From NCBI GenBank assembly GCA_051047955.1, contig JBPGPT010000043.1:62001-109750 (forward strand): a stretch of 47,750 nt of DNA, read 5' to 3'. The stretch is from Cystobasidiomycetes sp. EMM_F5 (taxonomy: Eukaryota). Shown here one piece after another: positions 2,759 through 42,690 of the stretch (the stretch's first letter is position 1; each line of letters begins with the position of its first letter). The notes beneath the pieces were generated by a model. It made no database searches. It was not told the DNA's origin and saw nothing but the letters and a program-made list of their open reading frames with translations. Made by a program: the position numbers and the translations under genes.

Positions 2759-5700
2759 ATGGCAAACCCGAGAGATCCGATGACTAATCAACAGTACTAT
2801 ACTCCGGGAGTAAGGGCAAAAGGACTCATGAAGCCTGTCAGATACACTGACTCTGAACGTTCACCTCCATTCTCAAATCCGACCTTGAAAATCTCACATA
2901 CCTCTCCTCTCTCTCGTTACAGCTCCCCCATTATATGCGTCCCGGCTCGCACGGAGAAGCTGCCCAACAACCTCCCAATCCCTTGGCGGCATTCAGTGCC
3001 TCCGCAAAACTGGCGAGCGCATCGTCCAGCAGTCCTGGTACAAGTTCAGGCAATCAAGCAGCCGTCCCTAGGAGGCAAAGAATTCCGCGAGCTTGCGATA
3101 CTTGCAGGTGCGGTGGACCACATTTGTATCCATTGCAGCCAACTGACGTGCTGCACTATGCCTACGTATGACAGGCGGAAGAAGATCAGATGCAATTTGA
3201 CCCAGATGCCTCTCGGAGAAGACGATCCGGAGGATGACGAGGACGAGGATGAGCAGAATGGCCGCCAGTATGAGCGCAGTAGCGTGGCATATAGGCCTCA
3301 AACTGCGAATGGACCTCCGCTGCCTCCGAGAAAGCCTCGAGAGTGCGTCAACTGCCTACAAGCTGGTTTAGTTTGTACATTCACAAAGAGCGCAGCGAAG
3401 AGGGGGCCAAACACAGGATACATCCAGCATCTCGAGACAAGGTTGGCTGCGCTCGAATCATCTGTAAACGGTGAGGATATTAGTAAGCAGACCAAGTTGG
3501 AACAGCGGCGGCCCATGACAGGCGGTTCGATTCTGTCCATCCACGATCCCAAGAAACGATCACGCAGTACCAGTGTCAACGCTGAACCGGCTCCTTCCCT
3601 GGGTGACGCTGGATATGGTGCGCTTCTTGGCGGAACACCGGCAGGCCCCGTCTCGGAGCGAATGATCCCAGATGGTACTGCTGGAAGTATAGCATTACAG
3701 AGCAGGAACATCTCCTCACCGGCCCCCGCACTGAAGGAATCTCAGACACCTCTACACCATCACATCGCTAAGAAACAAAGACTCAGCGGCAAACTCCCGC
3801 CTATACTAACAACAGTCTATCAGCATTCATCCCATGTTTCCGGTCAGATATCAGGTCACTTTCCAGGTGATGTGCCTTCAACCTCGACAGACACACTACA
3901 GCTTGCGACCACAGTGCCTCGTCAGGTGGACACGAGTCCCAGCGGAGTCACAAGCAATCGCACCGCGTCTCCAGAGCGAAAATACCGTCATTACGAAAGG
4001 CCAGTGTCCGGCTCCGGAGTTTCTCAATCGTCAACGGATGTAACTATTCGAGAAAGTCCTGCAACGCACACATATGATTATCACGCCCGACCTTCAGGCC
4101 CCGTCTATGCTTCTCGACCGAGTCCTCGAGACCCTGAACATAGGAAAGCAACCTTGCCTCCTATATCCAAGCTTTTGTCCGAGATACCTCCCGAGCCCCT
4201 ACTACCTCCCCGACAACATGCTCCTCCAGACCATGCCCGCTATAGGCCCCTTTCTGCGCATCCTATTCCTTCGGTCGCAGGGCAACCTTCTGTTTCACCA
4301 CCTGGATATGCAGTCCGGCAACCTGAGCAGCACTTCGCGTACGCCTCAACAGGCTCGGTGGACGGCTCAAGCAGAAGTGAGGGGAATCACGACACTCGCT
4401 CCAGTGCCAACCATCGAATGCATAGCCTTAGTGGGTCGTCAAGCCTTACCGCAGCTGGCCCTTCGGCCAGAACCTCGCCTGAATCTACACATAAGACACG
4501 TGGCTATGCTACATCCGACAGGAGCATCGTCAAGAGACCATCGCGAGAGCTACACCAAACGAACCCATCCATATCTACGAGGGGCAAGCCTCTGGATGAT
4601 CCTCGGCAATCGCACAACCAGGCTTCAATACGATACTCCGGGGAAGGTGGTCGCATGATGGTGGACCGCGATCATGATAGCACGCATTTGCGCCGCGAAT
4701 TGTTTTCGACTCCGGCCATGCGGACATTCGCATTGCTGCCTCTGCAAAGGTTGCACAGCGGATTTTCCGGATGTCGTACACTAATTAGAGCTGGTAAATT
4801 GTTGATATCGCCAGGCAACAGGATCCCCAACGATTCTTGGCTAGCACAGCAATGCGAAATCATCGGCTCTGCTATGCTACCATCAAATACGTCTACCTCA
4901 AACTCTGACGCCGTCCCAGAACAAGTCGAGACGCTTCTGCTGTGTTACGTAGACGCTGTTCGGCGCGGAAAGAACATCTCAGGCGTGCTGGGTGCCATCT
5001 CTGGGAAACTCACCGTATTGCAAAGTCGAGAAGTCGACATAAAACGTTATAATGCTGTATTGACATTACTAGCAATCTGGTATGTCTTCGTGTTGTCGAA
5101 ACCGAAGATGCATCTGGCTGATCATTCGTCAGGCATACCACGAGTCTACTATCCCGGAAAATGTACCCGGCTGCACCGACAATTGCTGATCCTGAACTGC
5201 TCTATGAGGCTCTAGAACAAGAGGATCCCGTAATACGCTGTATCTGTTATACAACCTTTGCGCTGGATCGCATGTGCCGTCGCTACGTCGAGAACAATCA
5301 GCAACAGATCGCTGCAGAAACACTGGAACTAGCATTGCCGCTGGCCATCACTGCTCAACTACCACTTGCTCAGCAGCAACTACAGTTGTTGGCAGTGCTG
5401 GACTCTTTCGTACTGCTGTTAAACTTTCTCTTCAATCGGTATACCGATGCTGCCATGCCCTTCGAGATTCTAGACCATCAGCGTCACAATATTTACAACA
5501 TCATAAACGAATTCAGCATAAGCGGAGTATCCGAATTATTCATCGGACCTCATGTGCTCTGTACTGGTACGGACTCGTCTGAAAGCGTCAACTTACCCTG
5601 ACTAAAGCGCGCTTTTTGACTACAGCTGCTGTTGCGACAATATATTGCATCGCATTTTGTCGCTCTTGGCTTACGGATGATCGTCCAACACATAATAAGA

Positions 5701-19423: not shown

Positions 19424-20044
19424 ATGGCGGGAGGCAGTGCTCCAGAATTCCATGCTCGCTCGGCAAAGACGATGTACGAGCGGTCTATCGTTTCTGTAGG
19501 ATTGCCGCAAAGCAACGAGCGCAAGGAGCAGATCCGCGTACTGCGTCTGCACGCCCCGCATCCGCTTGGCGTAACAGTGTACGTGCCCGACAAGATGCCA
19601 GTTGAAAGCAAGGAATGGAAGCAATGGATGCTCGACATGAAGCAAGGGACAGTCTTGCGCGTCTCTGCCTGCGGCTATACCGGCACTCGTGCACTCGAGC
19701 GCAAGCGTGCAGCAAAACGCGAATTGACGGGCACCAAAAGCCAACAAAAGAAACCGAAACCACGAAAGTGCGGCAGATGTCATTTGACCACTTGCACCGC
19801 CGGTGGTTTCCGCGGCGCAAAATTCTGTAAGAACAAGCCTTATGATCCGAAACTGTCAAAGTCTAGGCGCGAAAAGGTCGATGAAAGTCAAGCCGAGCGA
19901 GGCGTAACGAAGAAGTCGCGTAAGAAGCGCTATGCAGAGGACGAGGAGGACGAGGAGGACGAGGAGGATAAAAATGAGGAGGACGAGGAGGAGGGCGAGG
20001 ACGGGAACGAGCAAGAGGTTGACGACGAGATGAACCTTGATTGA
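19424..20044 (+). CDS. Intronless hypothetical protein with Cys4 zinc-binding motif, basic region and acidic tail; possible transposon-derived remnant
   Basis: 206 aa ORF with KPRKCGRCHLTTC-x10-CKN, Lys/Arg-rich NLS-like stretches and poly-E/D C-terminus. Confidence 0.5.
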   Translation: MAGGSAPEFHARSAKTMYERSIVSVGLPQSNERKEQIRVLRLHAPHPLGVTVYVPDKMPVESKEWKQWMLDMKQGTVLRVSACGYTGTRALERKRAAKRELTGTKSQQKKPKPRKCGRCHLTTCTAGGFRGAKFCKNKPYDPKLSKSRREKVDESQAERGVTKKSRKKRYAEDEEDEEDEEDKNEEDEEEGEDGNEQEVDDEMNLD

Positions 20045-20308
20045 GCTTTCGTATCGTAAGCTTCACTTTCCCTTCAATGTATGCTAGAAACGCGATTCGT
20101 TGCTGTAGTGCCTAGATGCTGGACTCGATTCCGCTGATTGTCATTCAGTTGTGCTCTTGCTTGTGCCCACATGTTGCAGCAATGTCGAGCGCGCGGAAGA
20201 TGCCCATTGCGGGGATGAGAAGCGGCGGGAATGGCAGGAAAATTCGAAATATCTTGATAGAGATAGAGAGACATGGTTGTGCAAAAGCCAGTGAGGTGGG
20301 ATCACAAC

Positions 20309-20471
20309 GGAAAGTTGGCCGAGTGGTTATGTAAGCGATTCTGCTTCGCTTTTGATGCTTGTAGGTCTGACCGTTGAATTTGTAGGGCGTCGGATTCAAG
20401 CGAAAAGCTTTCATCGGAAGATGGGTATCCCGATCACGCAAGTGGCACGAGTTCGAATCTCGTACTTTTCA
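20309..20471 (+). tRNA. tRNA-Leu(CAA) with a spliceosomal-type intron in the D-arm (20331-20385) and a canonical 37/38 intron (about 20401-20427)
   Basis: Mature sequence GGAAAGT TG GCCGAGTGGTTAT^GGC G TCGGA TT CAA G^T CCCGA TCACGCAAGTGG C ACGAG TTCGAAT CTCGT ACTTTTC A. Acceptor, D and T stems and long variable arm all pair; A31:C39 mismatch in the anticodon stem. Confidence 0.88.
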
Positions 20472-20495
20472 CATATCTTACTTTTCACATATCTT
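20464..20495 (+). repeat. 16-nt tandem duplication at the tRNA-Leu(CAA) 3' end
   Basis: ACTTTTCACATATCTT at 20464-20479 and again at 20480-20495. Confidence 0.9.
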
Positions 20496-21122
20496 TTGTA
20501 CGGCGCCTTTAGCTCCCGATGTTGTTTGCGTTGTCTTTCCCCAGATGAGTTATGGAAAAATTCGTATTTTGGTCGGAAGATCCAAAACATGCGTAGATTC
20601 GCTCTATACAGCTTGTGGACGATGACCAATACAATCTTTCGCGATTCTGATGAGCTTTCTGCTTGCGGAGCAATTATTTTCTGGCATAGCTTACAAATCC
20701 GCAATAAAAATTGCATAGCGAATGGACAGCCCAAAGGACTAGTTTAACGTGTTTCGAGCTACGCACAAACAAGCAAGGCAACTTACAATGCGCTTCCTCG
20801 ACGGGAATTGGCCTTACCAGTGTTATTGTTATCGTCCAAGTTGAACCTGGTCCAGCAAAGGCAGCGGATCTTCCACGACTTTTGCGAAGCATGATCATTA
20901 GTCTTTTCGGATATAATCACTGCAAGAGAACCCAGCGTGTCAAATCAAAAATGATTGCGAGGGCTTTGCAGCAATTGCGGAGACCAAAAAACGTTCGGAG
21001 AATCACGGCTTGCTAAGACGGGCGACATACGCTGTAGGCGCTGCATATCGTCTATGGTACAGTACATCTATAACGCAGTCCAGCCCGAACAAAAATCACA
21101 TTTGCAGCTGTGAGAAGCCCAC

Positions 21123-21128
21123 AAAAAA
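21123..21128 (-). terminator. Pol III T6 terminator downstream of tRNA-Leu(TAA)
   Basis: TTTTTT on the minus strand, 12 nt past the discriminator base. Confidence 0.7.
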
Positions 21129-21140
21129 GATGGTTTAATT

Positions 21141-21282
21141 TGGAATGAGTGGGGTTTGAACCCACGCGTGTCTCCACAACGGTTCTTAAGACCGCCGCCT
21201 TGGACCACTCGGCTGGTAAACGGAGAATATTAGAAAACGACTCGTACATCTGAAAAAGTCGAGGCGCCTCACCCATCATTCC
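21141..21282 (-). tRNA. tRNA-Leu(TAA) with a 60-nt spliceosomal-type intron between positions 10 and 11 (21213-21272)
   Basis: Mature sequence GGAATGA TG G^CCGAGTGGTCCAAGGC G GCGGT CT TAA GA ACCGT TGTGGAGACACG C GTGGG TTCAAAC CCCAC TCATTCC A (82 nt). The perfect 7-bp acceptor stem forms only with the distal 10-nt 5' exon. Confidence 0.92.
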
Positions 21283-21335
21283 TGCTGGGCTATGCCTAAA
21301 CTTTTGCCACAAAGGTCGACAAAAACGTATATATA
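21281..21335 (-). promoter_or_regulatory. TATA element plus A-box-like sequence upstream of tRNA-Leu(TAA)
   Basis: TATATATA at 21328-21335; TAGCCCAGCAGG at 21281-21292 (minus strand) resembles the A-box consensus TRGCNNAGY(N)GG. Confidence 0.45.
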
Positions 21336-22593
21336 CCACATTTCCAAAAATCCAGAACTCGCAGATCAGTCACATCGGTGATTGCATCGCCGGGGGATCT
21401 CCCGTGGCCTTCCAGCATTTCGCGTCTGGAAAGAACATTCTGCTCGAAGATCCGTTCGATGTTTTGATATAGTCAGCATACGGCATTTCCTGCTCTGTCT
21501 GCAGCAGGGACGTCCCCCCAAAACGATCCGACCAAAACTGTCGGCCCGAGTCCGCCGATTCTGCCACTATACGCGCCATGAGCACGTTTGGCATAAAAGC
21601 CCTACCGTACGCTCTGGCAAATAAGAGTGCGTGCTTCAAGCCCACCAACGCCAGCGTACGGGTAACTCAAAGTGCTTTTGTGCGAGTGCCCGAAAGCTGT
21701 GTGCACGGGGCCTCGTGTGAAGTTTTTGCTTGGGCAATATCCGTTGTTAATAGCATGTTGCAAAAAAAATGCAGGCTTTTGTGTGTCGATTAGCTTCTGC
21801 TCAGAAACGCAAGCTTTGTTATCGGATGATCCTATGTCTTTAGTAATCCTGCTTTGCTGCGGGAATAAAAGGGCCCCGAACACGAATCTATGGGAATGGA
21901 CGAGCGAGTCTGCAGGAAATGGTTTGCAGAAGACGGCAGAACAGAGTGCGACCGGCAGGGGACCGTGTTAGGGGGGCGTCGAGGGGCCAAGCTGTGGCCG
22001 CTGTAGAGTAAATTGTATAAATTTATGCAGCTGGGGTTCTGAGGAAGGCGCAGCCCAGTGCAGTTGATGAGTAAACTGCCGTTCTCTTCTCTATTCTTCC
22101 ACTCCGTAACCCATCTTTCGCCATTCTTGAGCAATATTTTCCGAACAAAACGTGTGTACCCTGCGAGTGGTGACGCGATCGACGCCGAAAACGACGACAA
22201 CGCAGCGAGTCATCGGAAACGGGCGCAGCATCGGACAATCGCAGAGGGTGGACAGGCCTTGGAATTGGACTGCACAACTCTACTACAACCAAGCACATAT
22301 CATCGACACATTCACTGCACACTCTGCTGCTGCTGCCCGCTCTCTGCTCCAATAACCTGTCTCCCGTAATTCGGTCCGGCGCCGTGCAACCTCGAAACTT
22401 TTTCCAAGCTCGGCGATAAAATATTGGCAGACATCCAAGGAAACGACGACACTTCGACATCGTACTGGCTCGACACTGAGCAGCCATGCCCGCTGCGATG
22501 CTCCGGGACCCGACGACGTCGCCCTACATGAACGCGTGCAAGGCGGCAGCAGTTGAGCACCGGTCGTCGGGAAAGGGCAAACGTGGCAGCAGT

Positions 22594-24903
22594 ATGCCAG
22601 CACCGGACGAGGCTGAGGAGCCCTGCATAGTGTGAGTAGCGTGTAGTGCTGTGGTCTGCGAGCACTCGTAGCTGAGACTTGGCTCCAGCTGCGGCGCCCC
22701 AGTTCAACACGGCCTGGCTTATTGTTCAGACGCCTGCCGGCACGAAGACGGCGACGCTCCATCGCCATACCTGAGTCCAGTACTCGCAGCCAACGCAGTC
22801 CCAGCACTCGTCCCGTCAAGGCGCTCGCGCGATGGCGGATCCACATCCTCACCGCCTTCGTCGGCAACAAGTTCCCCTTCGAAAGCAGCCGAACACGATT
22901 CTGACATTGCAGACATCAAGGAGCTCAACCTTGGCCCTGCAGCTGCTTCCTTCAAGCGTAGCGTCTTCAACTATTCGTGAGTCTGCGTTGCTGTCGGGAC
23001 ACTTTACGCGCTGAATGTTGACACGGAATGTCTGGTTTTGACAGGTACGGCTTTGACACTGCGCACGCCGTAGCGAGATCGCCAGTAAAGAGCACAGGCA
23101 TGCGCAAGTCGACCAGCAACACTGGCTCAGTTCGGTCGCCTCTGTTGGCTGCTACCCTCCCTACCTCTAGTCCGACCGAAGTGATCACGTTCCGCCGGCG
23201 CCACCAGCCAGACAGCATTAATGCAGCCAAGCAGAGCACGGCAGTCGGTCACCCGGCTGCAGCTGCGGCAGTTGCACACGCTGCTAGGCGCAGGTCGTCG
23301 GGTAACGCTGGCGCATTGTCAAACGTTAGTCGATCCGAAATTGTACTACCTACGTATCAAACGACATCAAGACCGACGACGGCATCCTCTTCATCTTCAT
23401 TTGCGCGAGTGCAGCCCTTCTCCCCCGTCCTTGCTCCGACTACGCAGACCACTTGTGCACGTCGCGGTTGCCCTCTGTCTACCTCACAGTCCTCCAGCGG
23501 GCCTTCCGCGCTCATCTCTGCCCTGTCACCACTCACTCGTCGAATATCTGAACCGCACTCTCCTTATGCATCACCTCGTCCAGTGTCTCCCGAGGCCGGC
23601 GACCCATTTGAGCAATCTTTCGCGGGAGCAAGGAGTACATCCGCCGTTCGGCTACCCACCAATGCGACTCCCCGAGAACAATTGCGCAGACCATCACTAT
23701 CGTCTACGCAGACAGCACCTCCCGTAGTGTCAGTTGGCACAGCTACAGCCCGTCCGGAAGATCATGCTGGATTCTCGGGCTATCTTTTTAACCTGCACAA
23801 TCGAGAGAAAAAGGCGGCGACCGCGCCCACATCTCCTATGCTCAAGTCGCACAAGCATTCGTCTCCTCATGCATCACCTGTTCTTGCCGGTAAAGCTTTC
23901 TCGAGTCACAAAAAGGACAGCGGTTACGATGCGCACGATGAACAAGATAGTTCATCCTCCCGACCTGTCACCTCGCACTCTCGCAAAAGCAGTTCGTCAG
24001 CATTGGCTGCACAGGCAGCTGGAGAACATCTCACATCTACTTCTACATTATCTTCTCTGTCCTCTCGCAATAATCGTGAAGCGTTCAAGGACAAGCTCGC
24101 AACAGTCTTTGCCTCATCTGCTTCATCCTCCGATGCCTCATCAGTCCAGCGAAAAGCTGTTCAGAAGCCAACCCGATTTTTGTTTGGTCGGGGGCACTCG
24201 GCCCACAGTAAGGTTGCTGCTGAAGACAGCAAGGCTTCGGGAATGGCTGTAAATGGCGAACGGCCGTCGTCGGAAAGCGAAGAGGAGCTTAGATCGAGAC
24301 AACGGCGCCAGAAGGCTGCTGGCGTCATGACAGAAGCCACTGCCGACTGGCGCCCGAAGCACAACCATTCAACTTCTGTTGGTGAAGGGTCACAGTATGT
24401 CGTCAGCATCCGACCTTCGGCTGTTCGTAAAGCATCCAAGGATCGCGCAAATGAACAAGACCATGTTCCGCCACTAGTACGACGAGGAACAACTGAATCT
24501 GCCATCGCCTCGTCGTCATCGTCATCTGATGAGGCGGATCATGTCCCCATCGAGAACGTCCTCGCTAAGCTTCGTGAAGCGGAAGCACCGGCAGAGGCAG
24601 AGCGTCGCGGTCGTGGAGCAGAACGGAAGGTTTCAATCAATGGTATGCCACGAGTACCTGCAGTGTCGCCGTTCACAGCTCTGCAGCGAATGGCGCAAGG
24701 GACGGAAGTACGGCAGCAAGTAGATTCTACCGAAGGCCGGGGCAGGTCGAGACAGCGGGAGTGAGTTTATCACCAACAGATCTGTCAACAGCATACTGAT
24801 CTTCACTGCTCTCTTTAGCTCCTCGATCTCAGCAGCGACCTACCGCAGCGTCAGCCCTCATCGCTCACGATCTCGAGCGAGCTCCAGGGGCACTCGGCGG
24901 TAG
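22594..24903 (+). CDS. Ecl1-like zinc-ribbon protein with long Ser-rich disordered region
   Basis: Exons 22594-22631, 22689-22976, 23045-24760 and 24819-24903. N-terminus PCIVCGAPVQHGLAYCSDACRHED matches the CxxC...YCSxxC motif of Ecl1-type proteins. Confidence 0.7.
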
Positions 24904-30918: not shown

Positions 30919-32817
30919 ATGGTTCACCCTGATTACAAGTCCGCAAAGCAGGCATTCGTAGCTGACAACCCCGGCGATGCAGTGACGCGCATCAATGCAG
31001 TGTGCTGGACAGCTATCGTGAGTGGATGCTGGCCATGTATCGAAACGGGCGTCGCCCCCGTCCCTGAAACGTGCGTACGTCTGGCAGGCTTCATATCAGC
31101 TATGGAAAGCTCTGCTGCCGCGCCTACCTCAATCACTTCAGCGTGGTTTCAAGCTGATGGCCGTCGAATACGCGATTCTGTTCCTTCCGCTAGTATCGGT
31201 CCTGACAGTGCTATCCGACAAACCCATCCTTCTGAACGGCCTTCTGTATGCCACCTTACTGCTCTGCGCACTGTTACCAACACGCTCCAGCGGATCAGAA
31301 GTAGTTGCGAAGGGCTCTGCTCGCTTCCAGCGAGAGCCATCTCCACTGCCTAGAAATAGCAGTGATCAGGACAGAGTCGCGTCAACTGTTACAGCTGTAT
31401 CGTCAAAGTCGGCGCCAGTTGCCTCCGCGCATCCAGGAGTCTCTTCAATATCTCTTGAACGGCCCTTCATTACCGTCTGGCGAGCCCACATGATGATCAT
31501 GACTGTTATAGCAATCCTAGCAGTCGACTTTCCCGTCTTTCCAAGATCATTCGGTAAATGCGAGACTTGGGGGACTAGCATAGTGAGATCGTTTCTGGTC
31601 ATACTGTCTCCACCGCGACCTGACTTTGTACACAATAGATGGATCTGGGCGTCGGCTCTTTCGTCTTTGCCCTTGGAGTCGTCTCTGCTGGACCACTCCT
31701 GAAGCGCGTTCATACGGCAATTCGTGCACCAAATCTCATCAGCTCCATGCGAAGAACGTTAATTGTGCTGTTCATGGGTATCGTTCGTATTCTGATGGTG
31801 AAAGGATCGGATTATCCTGTACGTGATAATAACCGTCTCTCACACAAGCAGCCGGTCTTATCTGATCTGTTTAGGAACATGTCACCGAGTACGGCGTACA
31901 CTGGAATTTCTTCTTCACGCTAGGTCTCCTTCCGATCTGCGGCAATCTAGCAGAACGTCTTTGGCCAAAAGTGTCTTTTACGATGATGGCTTTGGGCATC
32001 AGCACAGGTATGTATGCATTTGCAACCGTGTACATGAAGAAAATCGAGTTTAACAAAAAATAAATAATACGTACAGTCCATCAAACAGCCCTGCTTGCGA
32101 GTCCGCTCCAGGCCTGGACTATTGGTAGCGACAGATCTTCGCTTATAGCCGAAAACAAGGAGGGAATCGTCAGCTTTTTCGGATACGTAGCAATATACCT
32201 TATAGGCTATGATACTGGCATGTACACGCTGCCTCCAGATCCATACTATGCCTTTCGGCCGGTGGTCAAATACAAGTCTGCAAAAGCAAAGATAGGCAAG
32301 CTGGTCAATGTGTTACTAAGCTACGCTGCTACATGGTGGGCACTCTTTGGTGTCATGCATCTGTGTGTGTCATCGGATTACGCCGTTTCGCGGCGCCTGG
32401 TAAGTCTCTTAAATTCGGCCCATGGCTGCATTACCTTGACAGTCCATCAGGCGAATCTGGCATACGTTCTATGGATAGCCGCCTTCAACGTCTCTTTCTT
32501 GCTGCTATACCTGCTGGCGGATATCATATCTTCGCGACCGGAGGAAGTGCAGACAAAGGCAGTTCCAGCCATCTTCAACGCTATAAACAAAAACTCTCTG
32601 GTATTGTTCATACTGGTACGCTGTATATTCCTCGAATTGGAATCTATATTGACAGGCTGGTCCTCACTCAAAGGCCAATCTCCTTACGGGCTTCATCAAT
32701 ATTAGCATACGAACTATGTACGCGTCGGACTCGGCCGCCGTAAGCATATTAGTAGCGTACACTGTTGCATTCACGACAGCTGCTTGGGTACTTCGTAACA
32801 AGAGGGTCAAGTTGTAG
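30919..32817 (+). CDS. GWT1: GPI inositol acyltransferase Gwt1/PIG-W
   Basis: [77 protein letters not shown]; divergent from the GT21 gene. Confidence 0.95.
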
Positions 32818-32895
32818 TAAATGTCAGTGACAAGCTCCCAACTTTGTGCTCTTTCTTACTCTTGGCAACAACACCCAACTACGCACAACAACTGA

Positions 32896-35800
32896 TCAAG
32901 CACGGAGTTTTGCATAGCTGGCAGGGGCCAGTCTATGTTTAACGGAGGTTATTAGATACAATGGGAATGAGCTGACTGCGACAATAAGAGCAGTCTTCCA
33001 GATAAACCGCGTTGAGAGTACGAATGACATATTGAAGTATTCTGGCAGGAAGGCCGTACTGATGACGTAAACTGCCAGCGTGATGATCTCCGATAGAATC
33101 ATGTACACATGCCTGCGAGTGATGGCTTGGTTAGTATGATACTCTTTATCCCAATATTTGACCAACGTACCATGTACTAATCTCCAAAGCAACCATGATC
33201 AATTCGTTCAGCACTAGCGCTGTAAAGGAGATCGCCACGACATTGAGAAATTCATTCTCGAACAGGAAGAGCGACATCATCATGATCGCACCGCCTGTAA
33301 CAGGTATCCCCCTTAAATACCAAATGCAAAACAATAGTAGAGAGTACGTGCTTACCCTGGTAAACTGAGATCATAAGCCATTCAAAGAATGTCTTGTAAG
33401 ATAGGGATCGGCCCTGGCAGAGACTGTATCAGCTATCAGGTTTTGACATGCGTATGAAAGTGAGCACCTTGACCAGATCTTTGTACAGCTCTGGATACAG
33501 CAGTGCCAAATCCTCATTAACATCCCTGTCCAGGACGAGACTGAAGACGGGCAAGCACGTGTAGATGGTGGAATAGCCGACTAGAAGCCAGCCTTGGAAA
33601 ATTGCAATGGGAGCAAAGTAGAAGACGCTGCAGGATGTCGGTTCTCAGATCAAACATCGAGCTAGCGTTCGAGCGAAGCGCGTACCTCGAGAATACAGCT
33701 TGAATGATGGAAATGATGAGGCCACGGTGAATGACGAATTGCGCTAACTTTGCTGACCGCTTGTATGAATTTCTGCCATGCCAGACGAGCAGCTTAGTCA
33801 GGTAGCTGAATTGATTGATGCTGAAATCGGCTGCCAATGACGCCTGTTTGCCTTCTTTACCGACAATGCCCAAGCCGACGTCGGCAGCTTGAATCATAGA
33901 GACATCGTTGCCACCGTCCCCAATACAGCATACTCGCTTCTTGGTATGCGCTCTGATTAATCGTGCAACATCTGCCTTTTGTGTTGGCGAACAACGGCAT
34001 GCCACGACCGCCGGCAGCTTGGTAGCAACTTCGATGAACTCCGATTTGAAATGGTCGATGCACAGCTAGTGAATACATGTCAGTGACGGTAATGCGCTAT
34101 AGGCTAGTCCGTACCTGGAGAGACTCCCCGTCAATAACGAGGCAACAGTCTAATTTTGACTGTATGAATTCGAGCTCATCCTTTGCAGCGGCAGGTGATG
34201 TTACTATCATATCTAGCATGTCAGCTTCAGGCATTTGCTTCTACTGCACACTCACGCTTAGCCACTTGATGTATGTATTGTCCTCTAGCGACGAGCTTGC
34301 TTGATATGGCAATGCAAGTAGCGGTCTCAATCTTGTCACCCGTCAACATCCAAATTTTGATGCCAGCGTTGCGGATCAATTCCAATGTCATTTTGACATC
34401 GTCTTGTAGTTTGTCTTCGACTCCGGTAACACCCAGCAATTCCAAGTCGCGCTCGAGAAAATTTGCCACGACGGCTGCCATGGCCTCATTTCGGTCTTCC
34501 AGACTGATCTTGGCTGCATGATATTCATCTTCAAACTGTTTCCAAGTTTCAGGGCTTAAGCGTTTGCGAGCCATAACGAGCGTCCGAAGTCCCTCTCTCG
34601 CCATGTTTCCGCACTCTTCCTCTAGCCAGTCATTCTTTTGTACAATACGAGCCATGACCACGTCGGCTCCTTTCTCGTAGAATGTGATATCGTCTGTCTG
34701 CCTGTCTCTGATAACGATGCCCATGCGCTTCGTTTCAGACGTAAAGGGGAAAATCTCGAGGACTTCATATGATAAAACTTGCCCGTTCGGTGTTTTCAAC
34801 TCAATCTTGGTCCGCTCGCGTCCTACCAGCCGAAGGCCTACAGATTCTGTCCATTGGACAATAGCCACCTCGTCTGGCGAGGAAGCCTGATATGTCGTAG
34901 TCCCATCATCATTCAAGACTGGAGTCACATTGTGACACAAAGCCAACGCCATGACGACGTCCTTCACGCGCGAAGACAGGTCACGCCGCCCACGTGCACT
35001 GAGAAGTTTGGTCGGCTGGCCATTGGTATCTAGGTTTGTGTCATCCGCATTCTGCTGGAGAGCGCTGCTGACTTGGGCGGCAACCTCGTCCATTGTGTCT
35101 AGACTGTACGACATTGTTCCCATATGTAGTTTTTTTAACTCCATCTCATTCTGCGTCAGCGTACCAGTCTTGTCGCTCAAGAGGTATTCAATACGGCCAA
35201 GCTCCTCCGGCAGGGTACTAGTGCGTACGATTGTTCCTGGTATCTGCGGATCTGACTGTATTTGACGAGCGTAGACTGTTTTGCCGATATCGAGATTAAC
35301 GCGTAATGATATCGGAATGATGGAGGAGAAGAGGATGAGAAATCGAAACACGTATATGTACCATGTGCCTCGGAAGCCATTCAAAGCCACAAGCACAAAC
35401 GACAAGACGAATGTAACGACACACAAGATCTGCAACATGAATTATGAGTTGAAAGGCAAAGCGCGAGGTAATTTTCGTCTACCTTTGCCAAGCGATTGAT
35501 CTCCAAGTCTAAGAGACCAGTCTTGGTTTCTGGATGACTCGTGTTCATTACTGCTCTCGTTTCTCTGCCAGTATATATGATGAATGCGACAGCCTGGCCA
35601 GCTGCGAGGACTGTGTTGGCCCATAGGACATTCTCTGCGGATAATGGGGAAACCTGCGGCCCCGGATCCGTAAACGTGGCAGATTGCGCTTCAGGCGGCG
35701 TACGTAGGGTGAAAGTGCCAACGAAAGTATGTATGTCTTTCGTTGGCGGATCGGCGTATATTTCTGCGTCTAGCTCTAGCAGTACGGTTTCGCTTTCAAG

Positions 35801-41565: not shown

Positions 41566-42690
41566 ATGAGCAATGTGCCGTCCTCAGGAATCGATGAAAG
41601 CAAAGCTGGCCGGCGACCGACAAAGAGAAGGTCAGCAGAAAGAAAGACAGGATTATCGAAAGACGACGATATCGCAGCTGACTGCCATGACTGGGGTTCC
41701 AGAAAGCTGAAGCCGCTCGGCGAGCCATTCCGTGAAGCCTGTATGTCTGCGCTGCGATGCAGAGCCCTAACATGCGAAGCCAGCCTCATTGGTTCCTTGA
41801 CAAGCCCGACCTTCTGACGACCCTGCCTTACATCATGGCCGGGTTCGCGCCAGCCCGCACATACAAGGACAATGGTCTACGCATGTCTACATAGAAGGTG
41901 TGTCTGCAAGATGTGAGCCAGTTACGGCTCGCTCAATTGCGTATTATCATCCTCAGTACATGTCAATGCGGAGCTTCGCCAGGCACTCGAAACGGCCATT
42001 CAAGCGTTTAGGGAACAAATGCAGGTTCTGACATCCGATATACTACCTTTGATCGGGAGCGTGGAAGAAGCTAGCTCGCTGCATCTCAGCCTATCGCGCC
42101 CGCTGCAGTTGTGGACAAATGAACGAGCCGACTTTCGCCAGGCGGTAAGAACGGCGCTACAGAATCAAGCAAGGTAGGCGAAGGTAGCACTTTGCGCTGC
42201 CTGTACCCCTGAGCCTAGGCTAGTTTTCATATAAGCCTCGCGTCTTTCATGCATTTGGATAACGACGACAATTCGCGAAGCTTTCTCTGCTGCGAGATTG
42301 GTCACGGCTTTGCCTCGGTAGGGAATTCTGCGTCTTCCTAGACTGCTGCGCTTCCTAAGGTCGTTGCAGCTTCAGACAATCACCGAACGAATAGATGATG
42401 TGCTGAAAGAAAAGAGATTACCGCCGTATTATGCCGAGCCTCGCTTCCATGTCAGTATAGCTTGGTGGATCCCCAAGAGCACTACATCAACACCAACAGA
42501 GCCGCCATCCGCGTCCCACCATAAGAGCAGTGGCGAGGGTCCGGATTCTTCGATTACGGAGATGCCCACCCAAGCCTTGGGTATAATCAACGAACAGTAC
42601 GGGAAATTGATTCGCGGATTTATCATGCCAGTCAGACAGATAACAGTCAAGATAGGGCAAGACATTCACGTCAATGAGTTACGTCCGTAA
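41566..42690 (+). CDS. USB1: U6 snRNA 3' phosphodiesterase Usb1/Mpn1 (2H family); start uncertain
   Basis: DDPALHHGRVRASPHIQGQWSTHVY, first HxS motif LHLSLSRP, second HxS motif YYAEPRFHVSIAW, C-terminal VKIG. Confidence 0.88.

Follow-up and report, generated by a model that had tools for sequence, protein, structure and literature searches.

Introns are usually taught as belonging to separate systems, namely the spliceosomal introns of RNA polymerase II (Pol II) transcripts and of U6 and U3, the introns of transfer RNAs (tRNAs) which are handled by an endonuclease and a ligase, and the introns processed by IRE1. Can a tRNA depend on the spliceosome for its maturation? This question is raised by a locus on the minus strand of contig JBPGPT010000043.1 from the basidiomycete Cystobasidiomycetes sp. 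EMM_F5, of which a stretch of 47.75 kb was analysed as one sequence (the window). The locus is a nuclear tRNA-Leu(UAA) gene which is interrupted after position 10 by an insert of 60 nucleotides (nt), and by every sequence criterion examined this insert is an intron of the spliceosomal type.

The reading that we favour is that of a working, spliceosome-dependent gene with a genuine U2-type GT-AG intron at position 10/11, to which the features described below would give a probability of about 0.5. The readings which assume neither a working gene nor a disabled copy together account for a small remainder of the probability. If the favoured reading is true, a tRNA that needs the spliceosome crosses the divide between the systems named above, and the transcript of a tRNA gene of the RNA polymerase III (Pol III) type can enter messenger RNA (mRNA) splicing.

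The interrupted gene and the nature of its insert

The initial annotation of this stretch had described a tRNA-Leu(TAA) which is split in the D-stem, with its first 10 nt displaced by 60 nt, and had proposed that exact GT-AG excision restores an intact leucine cloverleaf of 82 nt. Coordinates and letters are as it gave them, and the excision yields what was predicted. When the exons were joined in silico, ARAGORN called a tRNA-Leu(taa) of 82 nt with an acceptor stem of seven Watson-Crick pairs out of seven and a class II variable arm, and the joined molecule also has U8, the GG of the D-loop, the T loop and A73. It is solely after removal of the insert in silico that the features of a class II tRNA-Leu(UAA) cloverleaf are present together (ARAGORN). 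The 5' acceptor strand in exon 1 complements the 3' acceptor strand at 21142-21148 at 7/7 bases, and the 10-mer that makes up exon 1, which is present once per strand across the window, abuts the GT of the insert exactly. Exon 2 comprises the D arm, the anticodon arm, the long variable arm, the T arm, the 3' acceptor strand and the discriminator A. Across the 82-nt tRNA, the splice signals, the B box and the terminator not a single defect was found. The features of the locus are listed in Table 1, together with the predicted introns of the window which were used for comparison.

Table 1. Positions in the window of the elements of the tRNA-Leu(UAA) locus and of six predicted introns
Feature	Position	Strand	Length	Remarks
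TATA-like element TATATATA	21335-21328	minus		-53 to -46 relative to tRNA position 1; presumed role
5' flank/leader region	21283-21327	minus	45 nt	from TATATATA to exon 1
Exon 1	21282-21273	minus	10 nt	tRNA positions 1-10: 5' acceptor strand (7 nt), U8, G9, G10
Insert, GT...AG	21272-21213	minus	60 nt	between tRNA positions 10/11; mRNA-type (U2-type) intron by its sequence
Intronic T5 run	21257-21253	minus		potential premature Pol III stop
Intronic T4 run	21237-21234	minus		potential premature Pol III stop
Pseudo A box	21215-21205	minus		last 3 intron bases and exon-2 positions 11-18
Exon 2	21212-21141	minus	72 nt	tRNA positions 11-73; Rfam, ARAGORN, coordinates checked
Anticodon TAA	21188-21186	minus		in exon 2
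B box (T-arm promoter element)	21162-21152	minus		in exon 2
Trailer		minus	12 nt	between tRNA 3' end and T6 run
T6 run	21128-21123	minus		Pol III-type terminator, 12 nt past tRNA 3' end
Predicted intron	5080-5132		53 nt	
Predicted intron, GWT1	31583-31638		56 nt	
Predicted intron, glycosyltransferase 21	29639-29581		59 nt	
Predicted intron, TAF7	26983-26925	minus	59 nt	GTGGGC...CTAAT/CTGAT...TAG
Predicted intron	6925-6861		65 nt	
Predicted intron	22977-23044		68 nt	

The insert carries the signals that had been reported for it, i.e. the donor G|GTGAG, a CTAAT about 17 nt from the end, a pyrimidine-rich tail and a final CAG. The donor GTGAGG occupies 21272-21267 (minus strand), is preceded by G and has a G at +6 where the consensus has T. 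The motif CTAAT at 21233-21229 (minus strand) corresponds to intron positions 40-44 and belongs to the class CTRAY, the fungal branch-point motif; its branch A is 21230, and 12 of the 17 nt which follow this A are pyrimidines. The acceptor CAG is found at 21215-21213 (minus strand). The insert thus combines the 5' splice site, the branch motif, the YAG end and a length in the range of local introns that are characteristic of U2-type GT-AG introns. For introns of fungal U3, a small nucleolar RNA (snoRNA), the part of PMC5832005 drawn on here gives a median branch-to-acceptor distance of 15 nt.

How readily such a combination arises can be read from the window itself. Among its 95,380 60-mers (both strands) 148 start with GTRAG, 3,011 end with YAG and 8,350 contain CTRAY at 8-35 nt from the end, and exactly one combines all three, which is the insert in the tRNA gene. 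To find donor, branch and acceptor signals together in this way is about a 1-in-10^5 event, and chance is excluded. The boundaries of the insert are ambiguous by one base, as G10 is identical to the last intron base and both cuts could be placed one base earlier to give the same product; the splice signals are carried by the GT-AG register alone.

The resemblance to introns of neighbouring protein genes in size and signals, which the initial annotation had also claimed, was found again with a comparison set that consists of predicted introns. These were defined as GT..AG stretches that bridge two long open reading frames (ORFs) and keep the frame; 18 candidates scored at least 6, and targeted ORF pairs were added. 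Six clean short examples of 53-68 nt were obtained, all with a GTRNG donor, a YTRAY motif which lies 11-23 nt before the end, and YAG as the final bases. The one in TAF7 falls where the Pfam profile TAFII55_N splits at position 82, between two ORFs. Judged by its letters, the insert appears indistinguishable in size and signals from these predicted local introns.

Other classes of introns and of intron-like elements were considered as well. A canonical tRNA intron was rejected on account of the position, which is 10/11 and not 37/38. Fungal introner-like elements occur in many near-identical copies, are longer than regular introns and have a stable predicted structure, as described in part of PMC3609843. 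The insert occurs just once in the window of 47.75 kb, its length is 60 nt, and its minimum-free-energy fold is weak at -10.1 kcal/mol (z = -0.47). In introns processed by IRE1, both cut sites lie within 7-nt CAGCAGN-like loops of short stem-loops, according to part of PMC12530127. On inspection the 3' junction of the insert resembles such a CAGCAGN loop, the 5' junction UGG|GUGA does not and a closing stem is absent, and an intron of the HAC1/XBP1 type was rejected.

More attention is due to the possibility that the insert is a non-canonical intron which is cut by the tRNA endonuclease, joined by the ligase and recognised via a bulge-helix-bulge (BHB)-like fold, with the GT-AG look being incidental. 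The geometry used for the comparison, two 3-nt bulges with the cut sites, a 4-bp helix between them and flanking helices, was checked for consistency against the canonical 37/38 case. In the GT-AG register one of the four central-helix pairs can form. The register shifted by one base allows three of four and an inner helix of 3 bp, which would suit a BHB intron; however, at least three of the four central pairs were also attained by 8,379 of 20,000 shuffled inserts (42%), outer-helix pairs amount to 0 in both registers, and the central helix would need bases of the acceptor stem. Neither a BHB motif nor unusual stability is revealed by minimum-free-energy folding, be it of the precursor (-46.5 kcal/mol, z = -1.41) or of the insert. 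We know of no fungal BHB-type tRNA intron at a non-canonical position. BHB introns are on record from the D arms of tRNAs in archaea and from non-canonical positions in tRNAs of Cyanidioschyzon merolae (part of PMC3978253) and give this explanation some plausibility, but it would leave the concurrence of donor, branch and acceptor signals to an event of about 1 in 10^5, and we regard it as extremely improbable. The interpretation of the initial annotation is supported in this respect, as the insert lies outside 37/38 and does not fit a BHB, with pairings (1/4 and 3/4) that are no better than those of the shuffled sequences.

Gene finders, open frames and the surrounding gap

Standard tRNA finders had been expected to overlook or to truncate this gene, and they do. 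In the untouched whole window ARAGORN with default settings called 0 tRNA genes. The Rfam tRNA model (RF00005) matches 21214-21149 with 35.5 bits (gathering score 29), but aligns with model positions 9-63 of 71 only, and the acceptor stem is absent from the alignment. The alignment starts at model position 9 because the pseudo A box mimics the A-box stretch. In its intron mode ARAGORN interpreted the 142 bases of the locus as a tRNA-Lys(ttt) whose anticodon loop holds a 54-nt intron; in this fold the anticodon stem is mispaired and the extra arm is very long, and we treat it as an artefact. According to the part of PMC8450103 used here, tRNAscan-SE 2.0 seeks non-canonical introns solely in its archaeal mode, with BHB models. 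Eukaryotic tRNA annotation silently loses genes which are split in this way, and 'missing' fungal isoacceptors may conceal further examples.

The 60 nt of the insert are divisible by three and one of its frames is free of stops, leaving an open frame of 105 codons through the tRNA locus (21055-21369, minus strand). A predicted protein of 75 amino acids in a public protein collection is identical to part of this frame and is the window's own product; the tRNA gene was called as a spurious protein by a gene caller. A word-indexed search with the ORF across the locus returned solely the window's own 75-amino-acid ORF (1 match among 10 candidates), and an exhaustive search returned this ORF and two unrelated ORFs that run through other tRNA genes (3 matches, E up to 0.001).

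The tRNA locus lies near the middle of a gap of about 2.6 kb (about 20050-22670) without Pfam-supported or long ORFs, which is flanked by a plus-strand gene ending at 20044 and by a gene starting near 22672. With no supported ORF around the locus, the idea that it lies inside a host gene was rejected.

These observations also bear on the idea that the two halves of the tRNA serve as exons in a longer Pol II transcript, either non-coding or coding, in which the tRNA part is incidental or is never released. Such a transcript could start from the TATA element upstream of the locus, and the open frame of 105 codons with its identical public protein might be taken for its product. The ORF, however, has no relatives beyond itself, the two other matches of the exhaustive search being unrelated read-throughs of tRNA genes, and the surrounding 2.6 kb contain neither a Pfam domain nor a long ORF. 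Moreover, what marks a tRNA gene is the combination of an entire tRNA, a B box and a T6 run 12 nt downstream, and we consider a Pol II transcript of this kind quite improbable.

Expression, splicing and the question of a disabled copy

A tRNA can arise from this locus only if exon 1 is transcribed and the insert is excised with precision. If the gene works as we suggest, transcription would start upstream of exon 1 and would be set by the TATA-like element and not by the split A box; judging from the position of this element, the start would lie about 20 nt before exon 1. The element TATATATA is a candidate upstream core promoter which may serve either as a site for TFIIIB/TBP in Pol III transcription or as a TATA box for Pol II, with Pol III being somewhat likelier in view of the B box and the T6 terminator. 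In the transcript U1 would pair with the donor G|GUGAGG, branch-point factors and U2 would use the A of CUAAU (21230), and the spliceosome would join G10 to C11. The D stem and the tertiary core could form solely after this joining, and RNase P, RNase Z and the addition of CCA would then complete the tRNA.

The most likely source of the intron itself is reverse splicing into the transcript of a tRNA gene, with reverse transcription and recombination as the subsequent steps. This origin would fit the precise GT...AG ends and the lack of a flanking duplication. The exactness of the ends suggests that the spliceosome itself made the insertion, in which case the same RNA could also be a substrate for forward splicing.

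The codon usage of the window has a bearing on how much would depend on this gene. In the Pfam-supported ORF pieces of the window 31 of 435 leucine codons are TTA. As UUA codons are used, at least one working tRNA-Leu(UAA) is needed, and the low use of TTA suggests that there are few Leu(UAA) gene copies. A more far-reaching form of our proposal holds that this is a working Leu(UAA) gene and possibly the sole one, that the decoding of UUA depends on the spliceosome, that the tRNA is the first whose maturation relies on mRNA splicing and that its intron was gained by reverse splicing; for this combination we would put the odds a little below even.

Several points weigh against a working gene. 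The Pol III architecture of the locus retains a B box and the T6 run, but the insert divides its A box, a mimic of which arises at the junction between intron and exon 2. With TFIIIC-directed initiation, an A-box look-alike in this position could start Pol III within the intron. The look-alike, rebuilt at the 3' end of the intron, has the normal distance from the B box, and a Pol III start inside the intron could yield transcripts that lack exon 1. For reference, tRNA positions 8-19 make up the A box and positions 52-62 the B box (part of PMC3978253). The intron further contains runs of five and four T, so that a share of the Pol III transcripts would end within it. With yeast Pol III in vitro, T4 causes hardly any release, T5 is intermediate and T6 is very efficient, and T6 is the commonest primary terminator in yeast and an efficient one, as reported in part of PMC9278858. 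A further T5 run (21321-21325, minus strand) is located just 3' of the TATA element within the 5' flank. A Pol III gene under long-standing selection would be expected to have purged the intronic T5 run, and its retention implies either that the insertion is young, or that Pol II reads the locus, or that the locus is not under selection. Upstream TATA boxes are of functional importance to the tRNA genes of certain fungi and plants and in vitro can even bypass TFIIIC, according to part of PMC3978253.

In addition, an intact tRNA with intact splice signals is equally expected of a very recent and unselected insertion, and a literature search found no published spliceosomal intron in any tRNA gene. 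The last point agrees with the initial annotation, which knew of no such case either, and it makes the prior for a working example low. Splicing of the transcript and selection on the locus are accordingly put forward as a hypothesis with roughly even odds. The overall interpretation given by the initial annotation is supported in part, and from it the Leu(UAA) identity and the spliceosomal-type signals and size are retained; the split A box and the intronic T5 and T4 runs had not been weighed in it, and they speak against easy expression by Pol III.

The same points lend themselves to a different account, namely that one of several Leu(UAA) genes was hit by a spliceosomal intron or by a mobile element resembling an intron, and was left as a recently disabled or redundant copy which gives rise to no functional tRNA, or to dead-end transcripts only, and which has not yet decayed. 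The split A box with its look-alike at the 3' end of the intron and the T5 and T4 runs inside the insert would all be unsurprising in such a copy, a single sequence cannot tell 'recent' from 'selected', and no published working precedent was found. Nor was a relative with the same split encountered. Two patterns were scanned for in metagenome contigs, the first composed of the intron AG, the D arm of exon 2 and the anticodon loop, the second of the D loop and the exact anticodon arm; each of these two scans returned 0 loci, and 0 were likewise obtained in two scans of viral contigs. This account is, on the other hand, at odds with the flawless state of tRNA, splice signals, B box and terminator alike. 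The precise GT...AG ends, with neither a flanking duplication nor extra exon sequence, point to an insertion made by the spliceosome and hence to an RNA that may be spliceable, and the 31 TTA codons among 435 suggest that few Leu(UAA) copies exist. A disabled copy is in our view a serious but less than even possibility. Should the locus prove to be a dead copy, it would still preserve a clean picture of how a spliceosomal intron was placed in a gene that does not encode an mRNA.

Introns of other small RNA genes and features of the window

The spliceosome-dependent tRNA gene which we favour has its closest counterpart in Schizosaccharomyces pombe, whose sole U6 gene contains an mRNA-type intron (Tani and Ohshima 1989) which the spliceosome excises and which sets a precedent for a Pol III transcript (part of PMC5855946). 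For U6 introns in general, an origin by reverse splicing and reverse transcription has been proposed (part of PMC5855946). Both cases concern a small structured RNA gene of the Pol III type with a short GT-AG intron and with promoter elements that are rearranged around this intron. There are however clear differences. The tRNA is not a part of the spliceosome, and the explanation that the intron was inserted at the active site is inapplicable to it; the tRNA intron splits an A box and carries no B box; and splicing of U6 is proven, whereas that of the tRNA is putative. The S. pombe U6 intron reportedly holds a match to the B box, as a title has it.

Closer to the organism studied here, introns are said to occur in the U1, U2, U5 and U6 genes of the basidiomycete yeast Rhodotorula hasegawae, going by the titles of Takahashi et al. 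1993, 1996 and Tani and Ohshima 1991. These small nuclear RNA genes belong to the same phylum and would likewise represent ordinary spliceosomal introns in small structured non-coding RNA genes. The basidiomycete host matters because mRNA-type introns in such genes (U1, U2, U5, U6) were reported in basidiomycete yeasts, if the titles are followed. Fungal U3 snoRNA genes, which carry introns as well, are similar in that ordinary spliceosomal introns lie within a small structured non-coding RNA gene; in the portion of PMC5832005 consulted, U3 and U6 are given as the sole small structured RNAs in which introns are known to be frequent. In Basidiomycota, such introns are known from both U6 and U3 genes.

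The introns that are known from tRNAs are of a different kind. BHB introns at non-canonical positions have been described in Cyanidioschyzon merolae, in nucleomorphs and in Crenarchaeota (part of PMC3978253). They share with the insert in the tRNA-Leu gene a position outside 37/38, the fact that eukaryotic finders miss the gene and an upstream TATA-like element which may drive transcription once the internal promoter is disrupted. They differ in being defined by a BHB fold and the tRNA endonuclease, whereas the insert has no BHB beyond chance and has spliceosomal signals. Canonical nuclear tRNA introns reside at 37/38 and are cut by the SEN/TSEN endonuclease (parts of PMC10485636 and PMC12530127). 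The insert resembles them in that it must leave the pre-tRNA before the tRNA can function, and differs from them in its position at 10/11, its signals and the enzyme expected to remove it. Being placed in the D-stem, it disrupts the mature domain that the eukaryotic tRNA endonuclease is thought to recognise (part of PMC3978253).

If the favoured reading is true, the mRNA-type introns of small Pol III-type RNA genes would be extended to tRNA, which would be highly surprising to specialists. The locus would also represent a natural and datable case of an intron gained by an RNA from outside the spliceosome, and would allow the reverse-splicing model to be tested beyond U6.

A looser Leu(TAA) pattern was scanned for in contigs of prokaryote genomes and gave 28 loci. 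None of these is related to the split tRNA-Leu gene, and they are uninformative on it. In 21 of them ARAGORN found an uninterrupted tRNA-Leu(taa), 15 being of the archaeal type and 6 of the eukaryote type on contigs labelled as bacterial metagenome-assembled genomes (MAGs); 6 further loci were without a tRNA, and one (L009) contained only Ile, Glu and Lys tRNAs. The uninterrupted eukaryote-type genes come from one Oxalobacteraceae MAG (L004, L012, L015 and L020), a Bacteroidetes MAG (L023) and an Oligoflexia MAG (L007), with L020 and L023 being identical in their printed flanks, and they probably reflect eukaryotic contamination of the bins. Two of the 28 loci, L002 (an archaeal MAG) and L009 (a contig labelled Planctomycetaceae), have D and anticodon arms like those of Leu(TAA) and extra sequence before the T arm, and default ARAGORN gives no Leu call for them; they look like intron-bearing tRNA genes.

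The protein genes of the window include those for an ABC transporter, Ras, TAF7, SCAMP, GT21, GWT1, a P4-ATPase, a DHHC protein, a piece of the USB1/HVSL family, Nramp and choline kinase. For two of them the best named relatives all belong to the Basidiomycota: the piece of the NEO1-type flippase is at most 76% identical to relatives from Agaricomycotina and 73-75% identical to those from Pucciniomycotina, and the Nramp piece shows 34-45% identity to Microbotryomycetes and Ustilaginomycotina. The GC content of the bin 20001-22000 is 0.486, the second lowest in the window after 0.469 (32001-34000). An ORF piece at 42322-42687 (plus strand) matches the Pfam family HVSL (PF09749, E = 2.3e-10), which we take to be the USB1 family of U6 small nuclear RNA 3'-end phosphodiesterases, and is an ordinary gene.

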